DNA of 44,390 nucleotides from Escherichia phage 590B. Shown piece by piece: positions 3,667-42,391 of the stretch. Where the stretch lies: the sequence record MW722821.1, one strand, 5' to 3'. Numbering within the stretch: the first letter of the stretch is position 1; every line of letters begins with the position of its first letter. A program made the position numbers and the translations under genes. Below the pieces are notes generated by a model, which worked only from the letters and a program-made list of their open reading frames with translations, was not told where the DNA came from and ran no database searches.

Positions 3667-3693
3667 AAGGCCCCATTATGGGGCCTTAGTTTT
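3667..3693. terminator. bidirectional rho-independent terminator
   Basis: 8-bp GC stem AGGCCCCA/TGGGGCCT with T-runs on both strands, between convergent genes. Confidence 0.6.
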
Positions 3694-3896
3694 CAACGGA
3701 ATCTTGTGTTTAAATCCTGCTCATGGACAACCCTCAGAACAGTGTCATAATCCCCGTATCTTCCAGGTTCAAATATATCTAATGCCTTGTAAGCAGACAT
3801 TGCGTCAGGGAAAACCTGCAGAACCTTTTTAACCCGGCACAAGTCACCGTCGAACTCTTCATCGAACTCTTGAACTACTTCGCAAATTGCATACAT
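3693..3896 (-). CDS. hypothetical small acidic protein (opposite-strand moron)
   Basis: 67-aa ORF with perfect SD (AGGAGGTG), own sigma70-like promoter at 3921-3952 and bidirectional terminator at 3667-3693. Confidence 0.6.
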   Translation of the reverse strand: MYAICEVVQEFDEEFDGDLCRVKKVLQVFPDAMSAYKALDIFEPGRYGDYDTVLRVVHEQDLNTRFR

Positions 3897-3920
3897 TTTT
3901 CACCTCCTGTTTAAGTTAAC

Positions 3921-3952
3921 TGAATAGTACCCTATTATATTGGGGTGTGCAA
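3921..3952 (-). promoter_or_regulatory. sigma70-type promoter (TTGCAC-N17-TACTAT), family A
   Basis: -35 at 3947-3952 and -10 at 3924-3929 read on minus strand; 32-bp element identical to 13403-13434; 28 nt upstream of gene 3693-3896. Confidence 0.6.
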
Positions 3953-4225
3953 ACTATTTATTTACGTATTCCAGTTATTCCTCCGAATTGTAAATGTTGG
4001 AATAAACTATTCGAATAGTTGACTTTTCACTAAAAATATGATAAGCTCCACCTGAGCTTGTGAAGTATGAACAAGCGACCGCGGCGCGGGCAGGTAACGG
4101 AGCGGGACGTAAGTCCTGAGTGTAGTTACGCTGACGCGTTCGGAAGGGCCATACCCTATTGCTTGTGTAAAAAGTAACTGGTTTACTGAGATTACGCCGT
4201 TTCTATGTTTAAATGATAAGGACTA

Positions 4226-4252
4226 GCGCCCCGCTTTATGGCGGGGCTTTAC
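4226..4252 (+). terminator. rho-independent terminator
   Basis: GCCCCGC-TTTATG-GCGGGGC then TTTACTT; 20 nt upstream of i-spanin start. Confidence 0.5.
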
Positions 4253-4271
4253 TTATCGAGAAAGGGGAAAC

Positions 4272-4658
4272 ATGAATCTTAAAGCAACTGTCGTAGCAGG
4301 AGCATGTTTCATCATCCTGGTTTACGCACACGGCATCTACCAGTATCGCAGCGGATGGAACGAAGGCCGGGCTAATCTCGTTTCGCAGCAACAGCAGAAA
4401 GCACAGGCTGAGTTAGCGAAGAAAACACAACGGCAGCAGCAGGATGAATCGAAGGCCGCCGCCGCTGACAACGAAGGCAAGACGAAATCAGAGGTGATTA
4501 CCCGTGAAGTCGTTAAGTACATTAAAACGCCTGGTCGCAGCGTGTGCACTTTTGACCCTGAGCGCGTGCAGCTCAAGTCCCGCGCCGTCGCCAACGCCAA
4601 TTCCATCTCCGGATACGACGATGATGCAGCCGCCGTGCAAGCTGGCGCCACCAAGTAG
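4272..4658 (+). CDS. i-spanin (Rz-like inner-membrane spanin)
   Basis: N-terminal transmembrane helix followed by Gln/Ala/Lys-rich coiled-coil; contains an overlapping +1-frame lipoprotein gene (classic Rz/Rz1 arrangement). Confidence 0.65.
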   Translation: MNLKATVVAGACFIILVYAHGIYQYRSGWNEGRANLVSQQQQKAQAELAKKTQRQQQDESKAAAADNEGKTKSEVITREVVKYIKTPGRSVCTFDPERVQLKSRAVANANSISGYDDDAAAVQAGATK

Positions 4659-4767
4659 TGACGCGGACGAGGATTTAGCTATCGACGTTCAGAACGCCGA
4701 ATGCGTACGGCAACTGAGACTGAAAGTGTTCATGTTGCAGGATTACGTGAGGAATATTCTGGAATAG
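4504..4767 (+). CDS. o-spanin (Rz1-like outer-membrane lipoprotein)
   Basis: GTG start with GAGGTG SD; signal peptide ending in lipobox LTLSAC; proline-rich mature region; +1 frame overlapping the i-spanin 3' half and extending past its stop. Confidence 0.65.
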   Translation: MKSLSTLKRLVAACALLTLSACSSSPAPSPTPIPSPDTTMMQPPCKLAPPSSDADEDLAIDVQNAECVRQLRLKVFMLQDYVRNILE

Positions 4768-4849
4768 TTGCCTTGCATGTTGGAATAATTTATTCTTGAC
4801 ATGTAAATCCGGGTGGCCCGGATTCCAACGTCCAGGGGACATACTGACT

Positions 4850-5551
4850 ATGAATCGTTTTTTACGTTATCCGTTCCAGGAAGAAGCTGGAGCAGAAGAT
4901 AAAGCTGGTGGCGGTGACGCTCCTAAAATGTTCACCGCTGAAGAAGTTCAGGCGCTGATTGAGAAAGAAGTTGCCGGGCTTAAGGCCAATCAGGAAGCAT
5001 TGCTGGCGGAGAAGAAAGAAGCCGCCCGTAAAGCAAAAGAGGCCGAAGAAGAACGGCAGCGTGCGCACCAGGAGGCGTTAAAGGCCGCCGGTAAGATGGA
5101 CGAGTTTGAAAAGACGATTCGTAGCCAGTATGACCCGGTGTTAGCCGAGAAAGATGGCCGCATCTCCAGAATGGCAGAGCGCATCCTCGGCAGCGAACGT
5201 AAAGCGGTGCTAGGCTCTTTCGCGGGTGACTTTATTACCCCGGAAGCAGTGGACATCCTTGCGCCGTTCGTTAAGACTGAGTTCGAAGGTGATGATGTGG
5301 TTACTAAGTTTGTCGGCGCAGACGGTAACGTAATCACGACTGACCCGGAACAGTTCCGCAAATACCTGCGCGAACACAAGGCGTTTTCGCATTTGATCAA
5401 AGCAAATGCAGCTTCCGGCGGCGGGGCTTCCGGTAGCAAAGGCGGCGGGGCCGCACCAGCGTTTAAAGACATGAGTGAAGCAGAGCGTTTAGCCCTGTAT
5501 AAATCGAACCCTGCCGAATTTGAACGGCAACTTAAAGCCCTGAGGAAATAA
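4850..5551 (+). CDS. scaffolding protein
   Basis: Ala/Glu/Lys-rich predicted coiled-coil protein immediately upstream of the major capsid gene; ATG 4850 chosen over the track's upstream alternative start. Confidence 0.55.
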   Translation: MNRFLRYPFQEEAGAEDKAGGGDAPKMFTAEEVQALIEKEVAGLKANQEALLAEKKEAARKAKEAEEERQRAHQEALKAAGKMDEFEKTIRSQYDPVLAEKDGRISRMAERILGSERKAVLGSFAGDFITPEAVDILAPFVKTEFEGDDVVTKFVGADGNVITTDPEQFRKYLREHKAFSHLIKANAASGGGASGSKGGGAAPAFKDMSEAERLALYKSNPAEFERQLKALRK

Positions 5552-6617: not shown

Positions 6618-6645
6618 CGAGAGGGACTTCGGTCCCTCTTTTCAT
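6618..6645 (+). terminator. rho-independent terminator after major capsid gene
   Basis: GAGGGAC-TTCG-GTCCCTC followed by TTTTCATTT. Confidence 0.6.
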
Positions 6646-11118: not shown

Positions 11119-11147
11119 TAAGGCCCCTTTCGGGGCCTTTTTCTTAC
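11119..11147. terminator. rho-independent terminator (bidirectional) after major tail gene
   Basis: AAGGCCCC-TTTC-GGGGCCTT followed by TTTTTCTT; also closes the minus-strand cassette. Confidence 0.65.
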
Positions 11148-11374
11148 TCATCAATATTGCTTCGGTATTCCCGTAACTTCTCCAGACTTTCAATTGCTTC
11201 CGCTAAGTCGGTTCCGGTGTCCTTGTGTCCGCGCAAGCCCATGCACAATAGCTTCTTCAATGCGTGCTGTAGCGCCGGGTCGCGTATATCGAAGGCGCGG
11301 AGCACATCATAAACGTCTACTGTCATAGTGCTGCCATGAGTGTTTGTCATTGTGCGGTTGTATTTTGAAGTCAT
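11144..11374 (-). CDS. hypothetical protein (last gene of opposite-strand cassette)
   Basis: 76-aa ORF; ATG 11374 with GGGGAG SD; ends at the bidirectional terminator. Confidence 0.5.
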   Translation of the reverse strand: MTSKYNRTMTNTHGSTMTVDVYDVLRAFDIRDPALQHALKKLLCMGLRGHKDTGTDLAEAIESLEKLREYRSNIDE

Positions 11375-11387
11375 AAATCAATCTCCC

Positions 11388-11858
11388 CTACTCATGGTTT
11401 TCATGGAAACCGTATTTACTCTCAGCGGCTTTACGCGCGGCAACCGCTACATCAAAATCATCGTAAAGCCCTAAATGCACTTGTTTGTAGTTAACTTTTA
11501 TAAACGCGCGCCACTTACCCGCGGCTTTGTGGAAACTTACACCTGTAGCCCCGGATTTATTTATCTTTCTCATAGTTTTATTTTTACTGTTCCCTGTATT
11601 GTCGGTGGCGCGTAGATTTTCTATTCTATTGTCTAGCCTGTTATGGTTTATGTGGTCTATTTGAATTTTCCTGTCTAAGTCACATTTATTATAAAGACAC
11701 CATGCTATGCGGTGGACATACACTGTTTTGCCACCCATACCGCAGCACAGATAGCCTCTTACACCAACCGTACCAACCTCAGCACCAGTAGATATCCTGG
11801 TAACCTGCCCAGTATCAGGGCAGTATTTAAATTGTTTTGAAACATCAAGGTACTTCAT
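11388..11858 (-). CDS. HNH homing endonuclease with AP2-like DNA-binding domain
   Basis: HNH core YVHRIAWCLY...IDHINHNRLDNRIENL followed by an AP2-like segment GVSFHKAAGKWRAFIKV...LGLYDDFDVAVAARKAA. Confidence 0.7.
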   Translation of the reverse strand: MKYLDVSKQFKYCPDTGQVTRISTGAEVGTVGVRGYLCCGMGGKTVYVHRIAWCLYNKCDLDRKIQIDHINHNRLDNRIENLRATDNTGNSKNKTMRKINKSGATGVSFHKAAGKWRAFIKVNYKQVHLGLYDDFDVAVAARKAAESKYGFHENHE

Positions 11859-12985
11859 CTTAGCATCTCCGGTGAGATTGAAAGCCTACCTACTTCCCCG
11901 AACTCTGAACTATAGGTTATGACGTTAGCGGACCTCTTAGACATCCACCCACCGCGGGAAGCATATGCATCTTTCGCCGCGAGAGTGCGATGTTGTTCCA
12001 CTACCATATTCCTACTTTCTACAATCTTTTGATGGTGGAGATGACCGACGTGTGCATAACTGTACTCGCTTTCGCCAAATGCTTTTCTGAACTTAGCTAT
12101 CATAATGGGTTCGACCACCTCAAACCGGCATTTATGCCCGTGTGTAAAGAACAACGTCGTTTTGCCGTGCTGCACCATCTTGTAAACATCCGGCGACGTA
12201 TCGACGAACACACGAGGCTCGTTGTCGTATAGCGTACTGAACATCTCAGCTAACCAAATCATTCCGCTTTCGTCGTGGTTCCCTTGCACGATAAGCAAGC
12301 GAACAGTTTTATGCTTAACAAGGGCCATATCGACAACACGGCGGACCATACGAATCATGTAGCGAACCAGTTTCTGGTAGCGCGTGTCCGCATCGAGAAC
12401 ATGACCACTTGCCGGGGTAACGGCGTCCAGACTATCGAAGTGTGCAAGGTCGCCAAGCAGGTTAATAACTCCTGTTCCTGCATCCGGTGCTTTCTGAAAC
12501 GCCGCGTCGAACCACCGAGAGAACAGGTCTTCTGCAATCTTCATGTCCCAGTCGTCGCCGCTCTCATCGGCCCATGCCAGCATACCGAGATGGAAATCAG
12601 ATACCGTGTAAAGATTGAGTAGTTTATCGTCACGTTTGGCTCGTGCCGGTTTAACAGGCGCAACGGGCGTAATCTCTGACTTCATGCCCTCTATTACGGC
12701 TTTCATCAATTCAACCTGACGTTCGGCATCAGCGTCGGTCTTAACCCATTGCAACTTAGTGTTGCCGAACTCGTCCACCAGGGACGACGTTCCTTTAATC
12801 TTGTAACCGTCTGGTACAAGGTGACTAACGTCGCGCCCGTGGCCTACGCCTTTCTTAGCCAGCTTCGCTTTACGGATACGAATAACTCGGTCTGAGATGC
12901 CGTATTTACGGGCGATATCGATATTCTTCATCCCGGCGTTCAATTCTTCCTGTAACTGTTCGTCGGTTATTTTCTTCTGGGCCAT
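11855..12985 (-). CDS. calcineurin-like metallophosphoesterase (Mre11/SbcD-like motifs) with N-terminal HTH domain
   Basis: Motifs SDFHLG (DxH), GDLAHFD, GNHDE, THGH, GHLHH in canonical order; N-terminal DIARKYGISDRVIRIRKAKL resembles an HTH; GAGGAAG SD; ATGA overlap with HNH gene. Confidence 0.65.
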   Translation of the reverse strand: MAQKKITDEQLQEELNAGMKNIDIARKYGISDRVIRIRKAKLAKKGVGHGRDVSHLVPDGYKIKGTSSLVDEFGNTKLQWVKTDADAERQVELMKAVIEGMKSEITPVAPVKPARAKRDDKLLNLYTVSDFHLGMLAWADESGDDWDMKIAEDLFSRWFDAAFQKAPDAGTGVINLLGDLAHFDSLDAVTPASGHVLDADTRYQKLVRYMIRMVRRVVDMALVKHKTVRLLIVQGNHDESGMIWLAEMFSTLYDNEPRVFVDTSPDVYKMVQHGKTTLFFTHGHKCRFEVVEPIMIAKFRKAFGESEYSYAHVGHLHHQKIVESRNMVVEQHRTLAAKDAYASRGGWMSKRSANVITYSSEFGEVGRLSISPEMLR

Positions 12986-13050
12986 GCTTACTTCCTCGTG
13001 TTTAGGATTTGTCCTATTTAACCACAGTGGATTCCTTTAAATAAAGGCGA

Positions 13051-13377
13051 CTATTTACTTTCCGCGCCTATCGCCCACCCGGTCATTACCATTTGCAGAC
13101 GGGTGGCTGTCAGTAGGCTATAGAAAGCATCTCCGTTTTTCTCTACCGAACGTATCACTGTGTAGGTTACGGCCTGCGGGGGTAGGCCCGATTTACCAAC
13201 CTCCACGGCGGCCTCACACTCGCGAACTGTAGAGTCCTTGAACGCCTTTACAATAGTAGGGTCGGCTTTCTCGAGCACACCAGAAGTCATAAGAACGGAT
13301 TCACTAAATACCTGTTCACACGGGACCCCAAAAGTAGCAAAAGACATAAACCCCAGAGCTAATACTAGTTTACGCAT
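13051..13377 (-). CDS. hypothetical secreted protein (signal peptide, no lipobox)
   Basis: N-terminal MRKLVLALGFMSFATFG hydrophobic signal-like segment; GAGGAA SD; own promoter at 13403-13434. Confidence 0.55.
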   Translation of the reverse strand: MRKLVLALGFMSFATFGVPCEQVFSESVLMTSGVLEKADPTIVKAFKDSTVRECEAAVEVGKSGLPPQAVTYTVIRSVEKNGDAFYSLLTATRLQMVMTGWAIGAESK

Positions 13378-13402
13378 AATTATTTCCTCAGTAAGTTACA
13401 TG

Positions 13403-13434
13403 TGAATAGTACCCTATTATATTGGGGTGTGCAA
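13403..13434 (-). promoter_or_regulatory. sigma70-type promoter (TTGCAC-N17-TACTAT), family A
   Basis: Identical 32-bp element to 3921-3952; upstream of gene 13051-13377. Confidence 0.6.
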
Positions 13435-29946: not shown

Positions 29947-29975
29947 ACTATAATAGCTAACTATTCATGTGTCAA
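29947..29975 (-). promoter_or_regulatory. sigma70-type promoter (TTGACA-N17-TATAGT), family B
   Basis: -35 29970-29975, -10 29947-29952; upstream of SSB-like gene. Confidence 0.55.
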
Positions 29976-32246: not shown

Positions 32247-32275
32247 ACTATAATAGCGAACTATTCACATGTCAA
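32247..32275 (-). promoter_or_regulatory. sigma70-type promoter (TTGACA-N17-TATAGT), family B
   Basis: -35 32270-32275, -10 32247-32252; 21 of 23 spacer/-10 positions shared with the 29947 promoter; upstream of acidic-protein gene. Confidence 0.55.
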
Positions 32276-32299
32276 TGGGCTTTTCTAAAATAATTAATA

Positions 32300-32308
32300 T
32301 GGTACTAT
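32300..32308 (+). promoter_or_regulatory. extended -10 element (TGgTACTAT) for the Cro-like gene
   Basis: TG at 32300-32301 and TACTAT at 32303-32308, 31 nt upstream of ATG 32340; no good -35. Confidence 0.4.
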
Positions 32309-32339
32309 TCACATATCAACTGACTAAGGAGTAATTGAC

Positions 32340-32555
32340 ATGCAACCATCTGAACTAGGCATCCGTGTAGAACAACGCCGCAAAGAACTCGGCATCTCCC
32401 AGCGCCGTTTGGCGGCCCTGACCGGCGTTTCCCAGGGCGCGATTAACCAACTGGCACTTGGAGTAACTCAGGACGTCCGCCCGGCAACGCTGTTCAAACT
32501 GGCGGAAGTTCTGGAAGTAGACGCCAAGTGGCTGGCGTTAGGTGAAGGGGCTTAA
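32340..32555 (+). CDS. HTH XRE-family (Cro/CI-like) transcriptional regulator
   Basis: 71 aa; ELGISQRRLAALTGVSQGAINQL is a canonical XRE helix-turn-helix; TAAGGAG SD; lone plus-strand gene in the minus arm; terminator overlaps stop. Confidence 0.7.
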   Translation: MQPSELGIRVEQRRKELGISQRRLAALTGVSQGAINQLALGVTQDVRPATLFKLAEVLEVDAKWLALGEGA

Positions 32556-34989: not shown

Positions 34990-35280
34990 TTACCGTTTAG
35001 CCAACCCTTCCAGCAAATTTTTATACTCTTCAAAATATTCCTCGACCAAATCATCGCCGAAATAGAAGTCGATATACTCGAGATTATCTCTTACGTTAAG
35101 CGATGCCGACATGGTGCTTAGTTGGCGTAAGCTAATTAGCTTCATTTCTGTTTCTACGCAGAAAGGCCGGTAGGTATCAAGATGGCAAGAGATATTGAAG
35201 CATAAAGCGAACTCTCCGGCCACGGAGTGAACCATATACACTTCGTTTTCTGCTTTATTGTGGAAAATTACGCCTTTCAT
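34990..35280 (-). CDS. hypothetical protein
   Basis: 96-aa ORF, AAGGAG SD, ATGA overlap with upstream regulator gene. Confidence 0.5.
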   Translation of the reverse strand: MKGVIFHNKAENEVYMVHSVAGEFALCFNISCHLDTYRPFCVETEMKLISLRQLSTMSASLNVRDNLEYIDFYFGDDLVEEYFEEYKNLLEGLAKR

Positions 35281-35459
35281 TTCACGTTCTCCTTAATCCA
35301 TGCTTCGACTTTATTACGGTCAAATGTTCCCGGTAAACGGCGGCCCATAACCTTAATACAGCAGTCAGGGAATTTGCCGCTGCGCAACCAGTTATTAATG
35401 GTCTGACGTGTCACCCCGATACGCTCGGCTACCTCATTCTGTGTCATGTAATGTTGCAT
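35277..35459 (-). CDS. AlpA/Xis-like helix-turn-helix DNA-binding protein
   Basis: 60 aa from ATG 35459; MTQNEVAERIGVTRQTINNWLRSGKFP matches the AlpA-type HTH pattern; first gene of the minus-strand early operon. Confidence 0.55.
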   Translation of the reverse strand: MQHYMTQNEVAERIGVTRQTINNWLRSGKFPDCCIKVMGRRLPGTFDRNKVEAWIKENVK

Positions 35460-35519: not shown

Positions 35520-35556
35520 CCAATCCCTGCAATATTTAATCTTTACAAAAAAGTTA

Positions 35557-35586
35557 TTGAAAGTTCTTGACACATGTTTGTATAAT
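35557..35586 (+). promoter_or_regulatory. sigma70-type promoter (TTGAAA-N18-TATAAT), divergent from 35491-35519
   Basis: Consensus -10 TATAAT at 35581-35586; would start a plus-strand transcript across a 350-bp ORF-free leader. Confidence 0.45.
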
Positions 35587-35785
35587 GGTTTTGGGACTTG
35601 TATATATTACGGAGTTGACGAACCCTCCCCGAGGGATTCGTCAACCCCTCCCAGACAGCTGAGATGCTTGCCTTGTGGTTTAAGGATAAGTGTATCTAAA
35701 TCTCATTTAAAGAAGTAACCCGCTGAAATATCTACTGTTTCTTAATGTGCCGTAGATTCGCAACCGTAAAAATGTAACGATTATT

Positions 35786-35810
35786 GGGCAGGCTTAAGGC
35801 CTGCCCTTTA
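35786..35810 (+). terminator. hairpin terminator / attenuator in early leader
   Basis: GGGCAGGC-TTAA-GCCTGCCC followed by TTTA (short U-tract). Confidence 0.4.
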
Positions 35811-35878
35811 GTTACCAAGTAATAAGAATAAAGGCACAACCCTACCTGAAGAATCACAACGGCAACGTAACTAATATC

Positions 35879-35907
35879 TTGCACACCCCAACATAATAGG
35901 ATACTAT
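35879..35907 (+). promoter_or_regulatory. sigma70-type promoter (TTGCAC-N17-TACTAT), family A
   Basis: -35 35879-35884, 17-bp spacer, -10 35902-35907; 30/32 identical to the 3921 element; about 30 nt upstream of first early gene. Confidence 0.6.
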
Positions 35908-35935
35908 TCACTTATCGAAACGAGACGGAGGAGTG

Positions 35936-37112: not shown

Positions 37113-37141
37113 TTGCACACTAAGATAGAATAGGCTACTAT
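37113..37141 (+). promoter_or_regulatory. sigma70-type promoter (TTGCAC-N17-TACTAT), family A
   Basis: -35 37113-37118, -10 37136-37141; 32 nt upstream of ORF 37173. Confidence 0.55.
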
Positions 37142-37172
37142 TCATTTACACAAACTAGAGGAGAGACAGAGG

Positions 37173-41987: not shown

Positions 41988-42158
41988 ATGTTCAGCGACA
42001 TCAACGCAGCAATCGAAGAAGCAATCTGGCGCCGTTACAACGGCGAGCAACAGCGTCACTTCTGCCTGGTGCAACGTGGTAACATGGTCGCCGTGGTGCA
42101 GGACCGCGATAACAAATATCCGAATGCGATGTGGACAACGAGGAATTTCTTAGGATGA
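41988..42158 (+). CDS. possible 56-aa protein
   Basis: Unlisted ORF filling the gap before the next gene; weak SD. Confidence 0.3.
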   Translation: MFSDINAAIEEAIWRRYNGEQQRHFCLVQRGNMVAVVQDRDNKYPNAMWTTRNFLG

Positions 42159-42391
42159 TTACCAGCATTCCTAACCTGATTAAAGAATTTGGTACGATGG
42201 CGGAGACATGCCGACAAACCGGTATCAACGAAATGACGATTGCTAAGTACAGTAAAGACGTTGATTGTGAGCGCCACGTAATTTATAACAATCGTCTGAT
42301 GACGCACGTTAAGACTAGCCCGGTGTTATTCACGCGCCGTGGTATCACTAAAACTGAGCAACGTATTGCTAAAGAGGAGAGTGGAGAATGA
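42155..42391 (+). CDS. hypothetical small protein with HTH-like segment
   Basis: 78 aa; AETCRQTGINEMTIAKYSK resembles a helix-turn-helix; ATG overlaps upstream stop. Confidence 0.4.
   Translation: MITSIPNLIKEFGTMAETCRQTGINEMTIAKYSKDVDCERHVIYNNRLMTHVKTSPVLFTRRGITKTEQRIAKEESGE

Follow-up and report, generated by a model that had tools for sequence, protein, structure and literature searches.

What is the function of a locus in which one 19-bp motif precedes two groups of late genes and its first copy is followed by about 200 nt without an evident gene? The question is raised by Escherichia phage 590B, a Kagunavirus of the subfamily Guernseyvirinae, whose sequence (record MW722821.1, 44,390 nt) was analysed over its whole length and is hereafter called the window. 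The window matches Escherichia phage NTEC3 at 100% identity. A previous reading of the letters alone (the sequence-only reading) had described an untranslated leader of ~200 nt between the first motif copy and the spanin genes. This description was right in that the segment has no credible open reading frame (ORF) and ends in a conserved 3′ hairpin, but it is no mere spacer, as it appears as a covarying structured RNA with its own promoter and with paralogs. The leader downstream of this predicted promoter, termed P_RNA, is very probably a structured and functional RNA. The coordinates of the features are collected in Table 1.

A structured RNA follows the first motif copy

The core of the RNA comprises a 5′ hairpin (H1), a long interrupted stem-loop (H2) and a tail. 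Single-sequence folds were made independently for five diverged versions, all of which folded into the same H1/H2 architecture, giving unbiased support for the fold. RNAalifold applied to a plain MAFFT alignment, with its indels mis-registered, missed the covarying stems and was replaced by the single-sequence folds together with a model-based alignment. The first covariance model was built from type A alone, the type present in the window (types A to D were defined from second copies found in relatives plus further variants); it recovered all types in the loci searched. The window copy scored 137.9 bits. Among 26 distinct sequences, 98.9% of the pair cells held standard pairs vs. 31-43% with slid partners, and seven pairs showed compensatory double changes. 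In a diverse set of 16 sequences including the Jerseyvirus SETP7, standard pairs accounted for 97.8% of the cells, compensatory changes appeared at 16 of the 29 pairs, none of 500 shuffles reached any measure and the slid controls gave 32-43%; all these counts come from alignments fitted to the model and are therefore biased toward structure. Moreover, two G-U pairs in P2b were invariant, which places the RNA on the + strand. The internal loop between P3 and P4 varied little between types (GGAGC / UGAGUGUA in type A), and a near-invariant tail (UUCGGAAGGGCC...CUAUUG) closes the core.

The same region carries a 36-aa ORF that is annotated as a hypothetical protein in phages Bas74, fEg-Eco19 and others and is intact in most type-A copies. 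The possibility that the region encodes this protein and is conserved at the protein level is, however, effectively refuted. Among the main-locus orthologs, the ORF is cut to nine codons in three (L039, L042 and L055) and to 17 codons in another (L035). Its ATG is absent in 12 type-B copies, its frame is changed in types C and D, and the ORF annotated in SETP7 begins at a different position. Furthermore, it has no Shine-Dalgarno (SD) sequence, and the substitutions observed are compensatory in the stems. The claim that no credible ORF follows the first motif copy was thereby upheld, the annotated frame being one that is not conserved. As a separate observation, an SD-like GGAAGGG stands 8 nt before an invariant UUG (4159; region 4144-4170), from which mini-ORFs of three codons in type A, six in SETP7 and ten in type B extend; the peptide is not conserved, and the arrangement could be a coincidence or a leader mini-ORF.

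No catalogued RNA accounted for the element. Over the whole window, no Rfam 15 family was found at gathering thresholds, while a permissive search of 3850-4900 returned chance-level matches only (E > 1), none of them on the + strand across 4054-4250. ARAGORN, applied to the window and to five related loci, detected no transfer RNA (tRNA) or transfer-messenger RNA. In the literature search, no earlier description of this RNA was found, and the sole paper on Guernseyvirinae transcriptomes leaves intergenic or non-coding expression unreported. A 'tRNA-Ser' is annotated on the minus strand in two Salmonella phages. In one of them, horsemountain (NC_073171.1, 10725-10802, positions 338-415 of locus L182), it extends over the last part of the Hoc-like gene and the terminator of that gene, and ARAGORN found no tRNA in the equivalent SETP7 locus. 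As an identity for the RNA it was rejected, lying on the opposite strand over the end of the upstream gene, and it is probably an annotation artefact. A packaging RNA like that of phi29 was considered as the locus sits in the head-gene cluster, and was set aside, with a second copy occurring in the early region and a normal terminase being present.

Promoters and GAATA half-sites at the two motif copies

The 19-bp motif ATGTTGGAATAAnnTATTC was confirmed in exactly two copies on the + strand, at 3994-4012 and 4777-4795, one base away from the positions first reported. There was no additional match at up to three mismatches in the window (0.04 expected from shuffles), and the exact 19-mer had no match among 185,579 species genomes. 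The palindromes noticed at copy 1 were likewise recovered, namely GAATA-AAC-TATTC (4000-4012) and a perfect 16-mer, AACTATTCGAATAGTT (4005-4020). A TTGAC was present after both copies as described, six bases past copy 1 (TTGACT, 4019-4024) and abutting copy 2 (TTGACA, 4796-4801).

The first TTGAC turned out to be the true -35 of P_RNA (TTGACT-N17-TGaTAAGCT), a strong-looking promoter of the predicted sigma-70 type with a good -35 and an extended -10, whose hexamers lie within the 16-18 bp spacing at a conserved position. Homology among the diverged paralogs starts exactly at this -35, TGnTAAGCT is retained in all paralog types and the SETP7 equivalent, TAGACT-N17-TACGCT, keeps the spacing. On the other hand, the TTGACA after copy 2 is not kept (TTGTTA in Salmonella-type genomes) and is not a conserved -35. 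The conserved promoter there is TTGCCT-N17-TATTCT, termed P_scaf, which is kept as TTGCC(T/C)-N17-TAT(T/A)(C/T)T in Kagunavirus, Jerseyvirus-type genomes, St162 and Serratia phage Otaku. Since P_scaf is conserved at 4768-4796, motif copy 2 constitutes its spacer and -10. Consequently, the idea of late-gene regulatory sites was sound in that both sites are promoter-associated and stand before late gene groups, but copy 2 lies inside its promoter and not upstream of it.

Both motif copies were kept in related phages, as a motif search proposed at the outset showed. In all main-locus copies, the preserved part of site 1 extends from (T)TATTCC-AG-TTATTCC (3967-3981) up to the -35, independently of whether its left neighbour is a moron cassette or a mere terminator. 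The (T)TATTCC half-sites occur in every main-locus copy, SETP7 included, and are absent from the paralogs. Site 2 is kept in all Kagunavirus loci, while Salmonella-type loci retain only GTGGAATAATTTATTCTTG.

The 19-mer represents a single register within a wider set of repeated GAATA half-sites. The arrangement GAATA-N(0-3)-TATTC was found nowhere in the 44 kb except at sites 1 and 2, and GAATA-N3-TATTC is kept in SETP7 despite differing flanking bases. The hexamer GGAATA occurs 29 times genome-wide, compared with 18 ± 4 expected, and clusters as a triplet precisely at both sites (3967/3976/3999 and 4751/4761/4782), the spacings in the second cluster being 10 and 21 bp. All ten exact GAATAGT heptamers in the window fall either in promoters of the PHIRE type, described below, or at sites 1 and 2. 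At both P_RNA and P_scaf this heptamer overlaps the first T of the -35 (cGAATAGTTGACT at 4013-4024 and gGAATAGTTGCCT at 4762-4773), with identical geometry. Both sites are promoter-associated regulatory DNA with repeated half-sites, as expected for a DNA-binding regulator, and the GAATA boxes are probably protein-binding operators. The alternative that the repeat has no specific binding protein, being either a by-product of duplicated promoters or a UP-like element rich in A+T, would suit the A+T-richness of both sites, their position just upstream of or within promoters and the fact that a binding protein has been brought only to candidate level. It is nevertheless very unlikely, given the precise inverted repeats, the helical phasing of the direct repeats (10 and 21 bp), the confinement of GAATAGT to promoters and the retention of GAATA-N3-TATTC in SETP7 where the surroundings have changed.

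The palindrome ATCCGGG-TGG-CCCGGAT noted after copy 2 is present at 4807-4823, where its pairing persists with four different outer pairs, and a change of A to G yields U-G, which would pair on the + strand only. It is followed by an invariant GUCCAGGGGACAUAyUGACUAUG containing the SD and the start codon at 4850. The proposed role as an attenuator had to be abandoned because a U tract is absent, and the scaffold mRNA is predicted to begin ~4 nt from the hairpin. The latter is perhaps a stabilising element of the 5′ untranslated region of the scaffold/capsid mRNA.

Distribution and paralogous copies

A total of 178 out of 180 phage records, Salmonella phages included, contained the block 3985-4275 with at least 95% identity. 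In two such genomes the promoter, RNA and hairpin were 91-98.5% identical to the window, compared with only 74-83% for the spanins, site 2 and the scaffold gene. At this locus, SETP7 has an ortholog that has diverged strongly (42.9 bits), with different H1, P3 and P4 and the same junctions. Type A in 180 records and the SETP7 type in 269 add up to ~449 of the 493 records matching the scaffold gene, and almost every Kagunavirus or Jerseyvirus genome has a member of the RNA family at this locus. A broader covariance model (R2) found no homolog in St162, Serratia phage Otaku and Serratia phage Eta, in which the slot holds other non-coding sequence with only partial resemblance by eye; in Eta, a whole holin-endolysin-spanin cassette occupies this position. 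No true match was obtained outside Guernseyvirinae-like contigs in IMG/VR, metagenomes, E. coli genomes and species genomes, within the limits of the patterns used. The pattern for the metagenome scan was too loose (G+C-rich), and two of its 80 loci (L061-L140) were real, both of them Guernseyvirinae-like. Two IMG/VR loci (L053 and L059) were discarded as chance matches.

Several relatives contain a second copy of the window's 4019-4161 segment elsewhere, with 78-87% identity. In ~50 genomes this diverged copy, with the same promoter, heads the long early-right operon and sits at the switch point from which the leftward and rightward operons diverge. The paralog copies have no GAATA site. In the window itself, the covariance-model search revealed no hidden second copy. 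One IMG/VR contig (3300045988_039442; L038, 2220-2328) presented at the main locus type A flanks around P2b-P4 of paralog type C, a chimera that may be read as evidence of recombination or gene conversion between both RNA copies within a genome.

A promoter followed by a structured transcript and an A+U-rich segment could also represent a transcription-activated replication origin with its primer RNA, as at the T7 and T4 origins. The phage has a T7-like replication module, the A+U-rich 3′ module comes after the promoter and the second copy in relatives stands where the operons diverge, all of which would fit. However, this explanation is highly improbable, as the one-strand covariation with invariant G-U pairs denotes a fold at the RNA level, which an origin would not need; there are no iterons, and the second copy is absent from this phage.

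The 3′ hairpin and read-through into the spanin genes

Downstream of the core, an A+U-rich 3′ module with a conserved GUUUCUAU shares 97-98.5% identity with Salmonella-type loci and leads to the 3′ hairpin. The latter has eight pairs, seven of them G-C, and shows compensatory changes in L003 (GCCCUGC/GCAGGGC) and SETP7 (GCCCGGC/GCCGGGC). Its U tract is weak, being UUUACUU in the window and UUAGCGU in SETP7. The terminator that had been placed before the i-spanin gene stands as a conserved hairpin with a T-rich tail (4228-4247) ahead of the i-spanin ATG (4272), with the reservation that its U tract is weak. The suggestion of an attenuator after copy 1 is possible in view of the conserved hairpin, but it is unproven, the U tract being weak and read-through being needed for the spanins. 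The hairpin may be a weak terminator, an attenuator or the 3′ end of the RNA.

Only ~15 nt separate the hairpin from the spanin SD, and no promoter fits between them. Spanin expression must therefore come from read-through in every genome examined, and, for want of another spanin promoter, a leaky hairpin is required. Judged by the promoters that could be predicted, the RNA is a true 5′ leader at the main locus and the only visible transcription route into the spanins.

Table 1. Positions of the features in and around the locus, numbered along the window
Feature	Position	Strand	Remarks
Moron ORF, 67 aa	3693-3896	-	Cassette-swap slot left of the locus; context, outside the element
PHIRE-type promoter/operator GTTAAC-N16-TATATT	3914-3940	+	AATAG-N4-CTATT palindrome in spacer; part of the moron cassette
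PHIRE copies	3921-3940, 13403-13422	+	
PHIRE copies	29948-29967, 32248-32267, 32292-32311, 35891-35910, 37125-37144	-	
Two direct (T)TATTCC half-sites (reverse complement of GGAATA)	3967-3981	.	Upstream part of the site-1 operator block
Motif copy 1	3994-4012	+	Contains GGAATA and the GAATA-AAC-TATTC inverted repeat
Perfect 16-bp palindrome AACTATTCGAATAGTT	4005-4020	.	Right half GAATAGT (4013-4019) shares 1 nt with the -35
P_RNA (predicted)	4019-4047	+	-35 TTGACT 4019-4024; 17-bp spacer; TG 4039-4040; -10 TAAGCT 4042-4047; predicted start ~4054
RNA core, 108 nt	4054-4161	+	H1 5′ hairpin, H2 long interrupted stem-loop and tail
H1 hairpin GCUUGU/ACAAGC	4056-4076	+	
H2 interrupted stem-loop	4079-4143	+	P2 CCG/CGG; P2b GGCGCG/CGCGUU; P3 CAG+GUAAC/GUUAC+CUG; internal loop; P4 GGGAC-GUAA-GUCC
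36-aa ORF annotated in relatives	4067-4177	+	Not a gene
A+U-rich 3′ module	4162-4227	+	Conserved GUUUCUAU; small hairpin AGUAA-CUGGU-UUACU
3′ hairpin GCCCCGC(U)-loop-(G)GCGGGGC then UUUACUU	4228-4254 (stem-loop 4228-4247)	+	
i-spanin with embedded/overlapping o-spanin	4272-4658; o-spanin end ~4767	+	Genes directly served by the leader
GGAATA direct repeats at 10-bp spacing	4751, 4761 (4751-4768)	+	Second is GAATAGT 4762-4768, 1-nt overlap with the -35
P_scaf (predicted)	4768-4796	+	-35 TTGCCT 4768-4773; 17-bp spacer; -10 TATTCT 4791-4796
Hairpin AUCCGGG-UGG-CCCGGAU	4807-4823	+	~4 nt from the predicted scaffold mRNA 5′ end

Mode of action of the RNA

The explanation tentatively preferred, with somewhat less than even confidence, is a compound late-gene control locus made of two sigma-70-type promoters with GAATA half-sites and a structured leader RNA acting in cis. 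P_RNA would transcribe an RNA of ~200 nt composed of the core, the A+U-rich 3′ module and the G+C-rich hairpin. This leader would act in cis on its own transcription complex or transcript and would set the amount of transcription passing the 3′ hairpin and the downstream terminators, possibly through leader-RNA-mediated antitermination in the manner of HK022 put, or through attenuation. A phage DNA-binding protein recognising the GAATA boxes would time both promoters. All the RNA copies lie directly after a strong-looking promoter and at the 5′ end of long + strand units, and internal + strand terminators are found downstream (e.g. 6619-6640 and 11120-11139). No Q- or N-type antiterminator appears in the annotation of the relative Bas74, and no Pfam or PHROG match to one was found among ten candidate ORFs scanned. 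A cis-acting role of the RNA in elongation or termination is possible, if doubtful, and a trans-acting RNA is nearly as likely. The more specific proposal of a second, independently evolved put-like class, in which the nascent leader would bind the host RNA polymerase and render it terminator-resistant without a phage protein, is improbable. Such a leader would act at the heads of both long rightward units of these virulent siphoviruses (Guernseyvirinae), with the GAATA-box regulator deciding when the late copy fires.

Several observations weigh against the compound locus with a cis-acting leader. P_RNA was missed by a simple consensus promoter scan, as its -10 matches at only three of six positions, and the start site, 3′ end and abundance of the RNA are predictions from sequence. 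The pair counts carry the bias stated above, and the near-identity of type A across genera could stem from recent cassette exchange and not from constraint. Inspection by eye revealed no conserved pairing of the RNA core with the 5′ arm of the 3′ hairpin that could serve as an antiterminator. An unfiltered search of the complete HK022 genome with the covariance model R1 gave no match at the PL- and PR-proximal regions; one 16.5-bit match at PR′ covered an H1-like hairpin only and was dismissed as chance. Moreover, each paralog cassette closes with a hairpin of its own, after which the downstream operon has a PHIRE-type promoter to itself. Finally, in the window the slot of the paralog holds a different, non-homologous promoter-RNA-terminator cassette, which means that the specific fold is dispensable at that position.

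The self-contained look of the paralog cassettes, each resembling an RNA gene, favours a role in trans. The RNA would then be a free-standing stable RNA that either base-pairs as a small RNA (sRNA) or titrates a phage or host protein as a decoy or sponge. A strong constitutive promoter would drive its early synthesis, the 3′ hairpin would be its end, and the spanins would be expressed by leakage past a weak terminator. This possibility is rather unlikely overall. It draws on the modularity of the promoter-RNA-hairpin cassette, with paralog homology beginning at the -35 and a separate promoter after the paralogs' own hairpin, on the swapping of cassettes at the early-right slot, on 5′-terminal and 3′ hairpins typical of stable RNAs and on the same fold being kept by several sequence types. 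However, in none of the genomes examined is another promoter visible for the spanins, and with so poor a U tail an sRNA end of the classical Hfq type is unlikely. When the 3′ module was compared with phage translation-initiation regions, complementarity was no better than in shuffles (a weak test, in which the duplexfold output looked unreliable), and no match in E. coli genomes pointed to a host target or mimic.

A late switch of the lambda type is a further alternative, in which P_RNA would constitutively make a short terminated leader comparable to the lambda 6S RNA between PR′ and tR′, a phage protein bound at the GAATA site would load onto RNA polymerase and allow it to pass into the spanin and structural genes, and the fold would be incidental. 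The layout fits, running from the promoter (4019-4047) through the leader and hairpin with a T-rich tail (4054-4254) to the lysis-type genes (spanins from 4272 onward) and then the scaffold and capsid genes. In addition, the putative protein-binding site adjoins the promoter, and Serratia phage Eta has its holin-endolysin-spanin cassette at this very position. Nevertheless, this switch is quite unlikely, as the strong covariation denotes a fold under selection, no Q-like protein came to light in the Bas74 annotation or among the ten scanned candidate ORFs, the GAATA site is missing from the paralog copies and the U tract is weak.

PHIRE repeats, candidate regulators and neighbouring features

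In the related Kagunavirus fBC-Eco01, a PHIRE-derived repeat with seven copies (tgAATAGTa-ccTATTat-T) was reported as 'phage RNA polymerase promoters' (PMC9825357). The GAATAGT half-site is common to this repeat and to sites 1 and 2, but the latter carry GAATA-N3-TATTC plus a GAATAGT abutting the -35. The window also contains seven copies of the repeat (Table 1), which may be read as sigma-70-type promoters (e.g. TTGACA-N17-TATAGT) with an operator palindrome AATAG-N4-CTATT in the spacer, and not as promoters of a phage polymerase. No phage RNA polymerase gene is annotated in Bas74. The reverse complement of the repeat also yields a -10 of the form (C/T)ATAAT, and some copies may be bidirectional. 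The copy nearest to the locus lies 55 bp to the left of motif copy 1; at this promoter (3914-3940), the reverse complement yields TATAAT ~35 nt upstream of the moron ATG, and the copy is absent from relatives without the moron. The PHIRE promoters and sites 1 and 2 seem to form a single regulon with two uses of the half-site, which would have a repressing geometry in the promoter spacers and a class-II-like one at about -41 to -35.

Three proteins are candidates for binding these boxes. An XRE/Cro-type helix-turn-helix (HTH) gene at 32340-32555 (+) matched PF01381 (E = 4e-13), adjoins two PHIRE promoters and lies on the opposite strand among leftward replication genes; its product is a natural candidate for binding the GAATAG operators. 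Other putative binders are an HTH_17 protein (35277-35459) and a NinH-like protein (42155-42391), the latter being sub-threshold. Separately, AGGAATATTCT (4750-4760) resembles the enterobacterial RcsAB box, TaAGaatatTCctA, although this may merely reflect the GAATA half-sites. The resemblance may be of interest, as these phages target capsule or O-antigen.

The gene layout was taken from Bas74, a well-annotated relative with a Pharokka-style annotation, in which one long rightward (+) direction of transcription starts at small early genes at ~36.8 kb. In the + direction, the early genes are followed by holin/endolysin, terminase, portal, head morphogenesis and a Hoc-like gene. Beyond the latter come a bidirectional terminator, a variable minus-strand moron slot, the locus studied here and the spanin, scaffold, capsid and tail genes. 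The replication genes are oriented leftward, and the T7-like replication module comprises a helicase-primase, Pol A, a gp2.5-like single-stranded DNA-binding protein and an exonuclease.

The moron slot (3688-3965) lies between the bidirectional terminator 3667-3687 and the operator block, and in relatives it holds a DnaN-like gene, a Dam methylase or nothing, with homology to the window resuming at 3894, 3921 or 3967. In some relatives, an HNH endonuclease is inserted downstream, beside the spanin genes. Farther right, a minus-strand gene block (11120-13423; exonuclease and others) interrupts the tail operon. On one side of it stands a bidirectional terminator (11120-11139) and on the other a PHIRE promoter on the + strand (13395-13423), which restarts rightward transcription; the terminate-and-restart logic is the same as at the studied locus. 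The non-coding cassette in the window's paralog slot (35523-35850) has a promoter-like TTGAAA-N18-TATAAT, a long hairpin (~35614-35645), a fold z-score of -4.6 and a terminator GGGCAGGC-UUAA-GCCUGCCC then UUU. It appears at full length in ~20 phage records and with its 3′ third in 334, and its 3′ part shares GUUUCUuAaUGUGCCGUAG with the 3′ module of the paralogs.

Significance

The element defines a new, well-supported family of structured RNA, which would belong to a known general kind, that of phage promoter-proximal regulatory RNAs. Guernseyvirinae (Kagunavirus and Jerseyvirus) are among the most often isolated phages of E. coli and Salmonella and are used in phage therapy, food safety and as synthetic-biology chassis, while their transcription programme is essentially unmapped. 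Here, a 'hypothetical protein' mis-annotated in hundreds of GenBank records becomes a structured RNA with strong covariation, and the two late promoters, both conserved, are defined along with a GAATA-box regulon across the genome and its candidate regulators. Moreover, the published 'phage-polymerase promoters' would be recast as promoters for host sigma-70 that carry operators. Exact coordinates and a covariance model are supplied for mutagenesis. If the RNA does act on RNA polymerase, it would be only the second known RNA-only processive antitermination system of phages; if it acts in trans, it would be a new abundant phage RNA. Either way, inserting payloads here or deleting the 'ORF' could unexpectedly affect lysis and late-gene expression.

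Comparison with known systems

The closest parallel to a cis-acting leader is offered by putL and putR of HK022, which are cis-acting, RNA-only processive antiterminators (PMC9378689). A put RNA is characterised by its binding to the zinc-binding domain of the RNA polymerase β′ subunit and by suppressing pausing and termination in cis with no need of protein factors. In both cases a promoter-proximal nascent RNA, here a predicted one, forms stem-loops, two related copies head two long terminator-containing operons (here in ~50 relatives) and no dedicated antiterminator protein is evident, both being enterobacterial phages that use the host RNA polymerase. On the other hand, the RNA resembles put in neither sequence nor structure, the core described here has ~105 nt compared with ~70 nt, it consists of a short 5′ hairpin and one long interrupted stem, plus a 3′ module and hairpin, and the window has one copy only.

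In the lambda late leader, the promoter PR′ is followed by the 6S RNA (194 nt) and the terminator tR′, which is read through with the Q protein. The strong-looking promoter, the ~200-nt leader ending in a hairpin with a T-rich tail and the succession of lysis-type and head genes are shared, together with a protein-binding DNA element at the promoter, a candidate site in the present case. The locus differs in the strong selection acting on its RNA fold, in the weak U tract and in the candidate site, which lies upstream of and overlapping the -35 instead of between -35 and -10. Moreover, a search of the Bas74 annotation and the ten candidate ORFs revealed no Q homolog. Finally, dual-function phage switch proteins, such as lambda CI at PR/PRM and phi29 p4, repress early promoters and activate late or other ones according to the placement of their sites. 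A similar disposition is seen here, with the same half-site appearing in the spacer of seven promoters and just upstream of the -35 at P_RNA and P_scaf.

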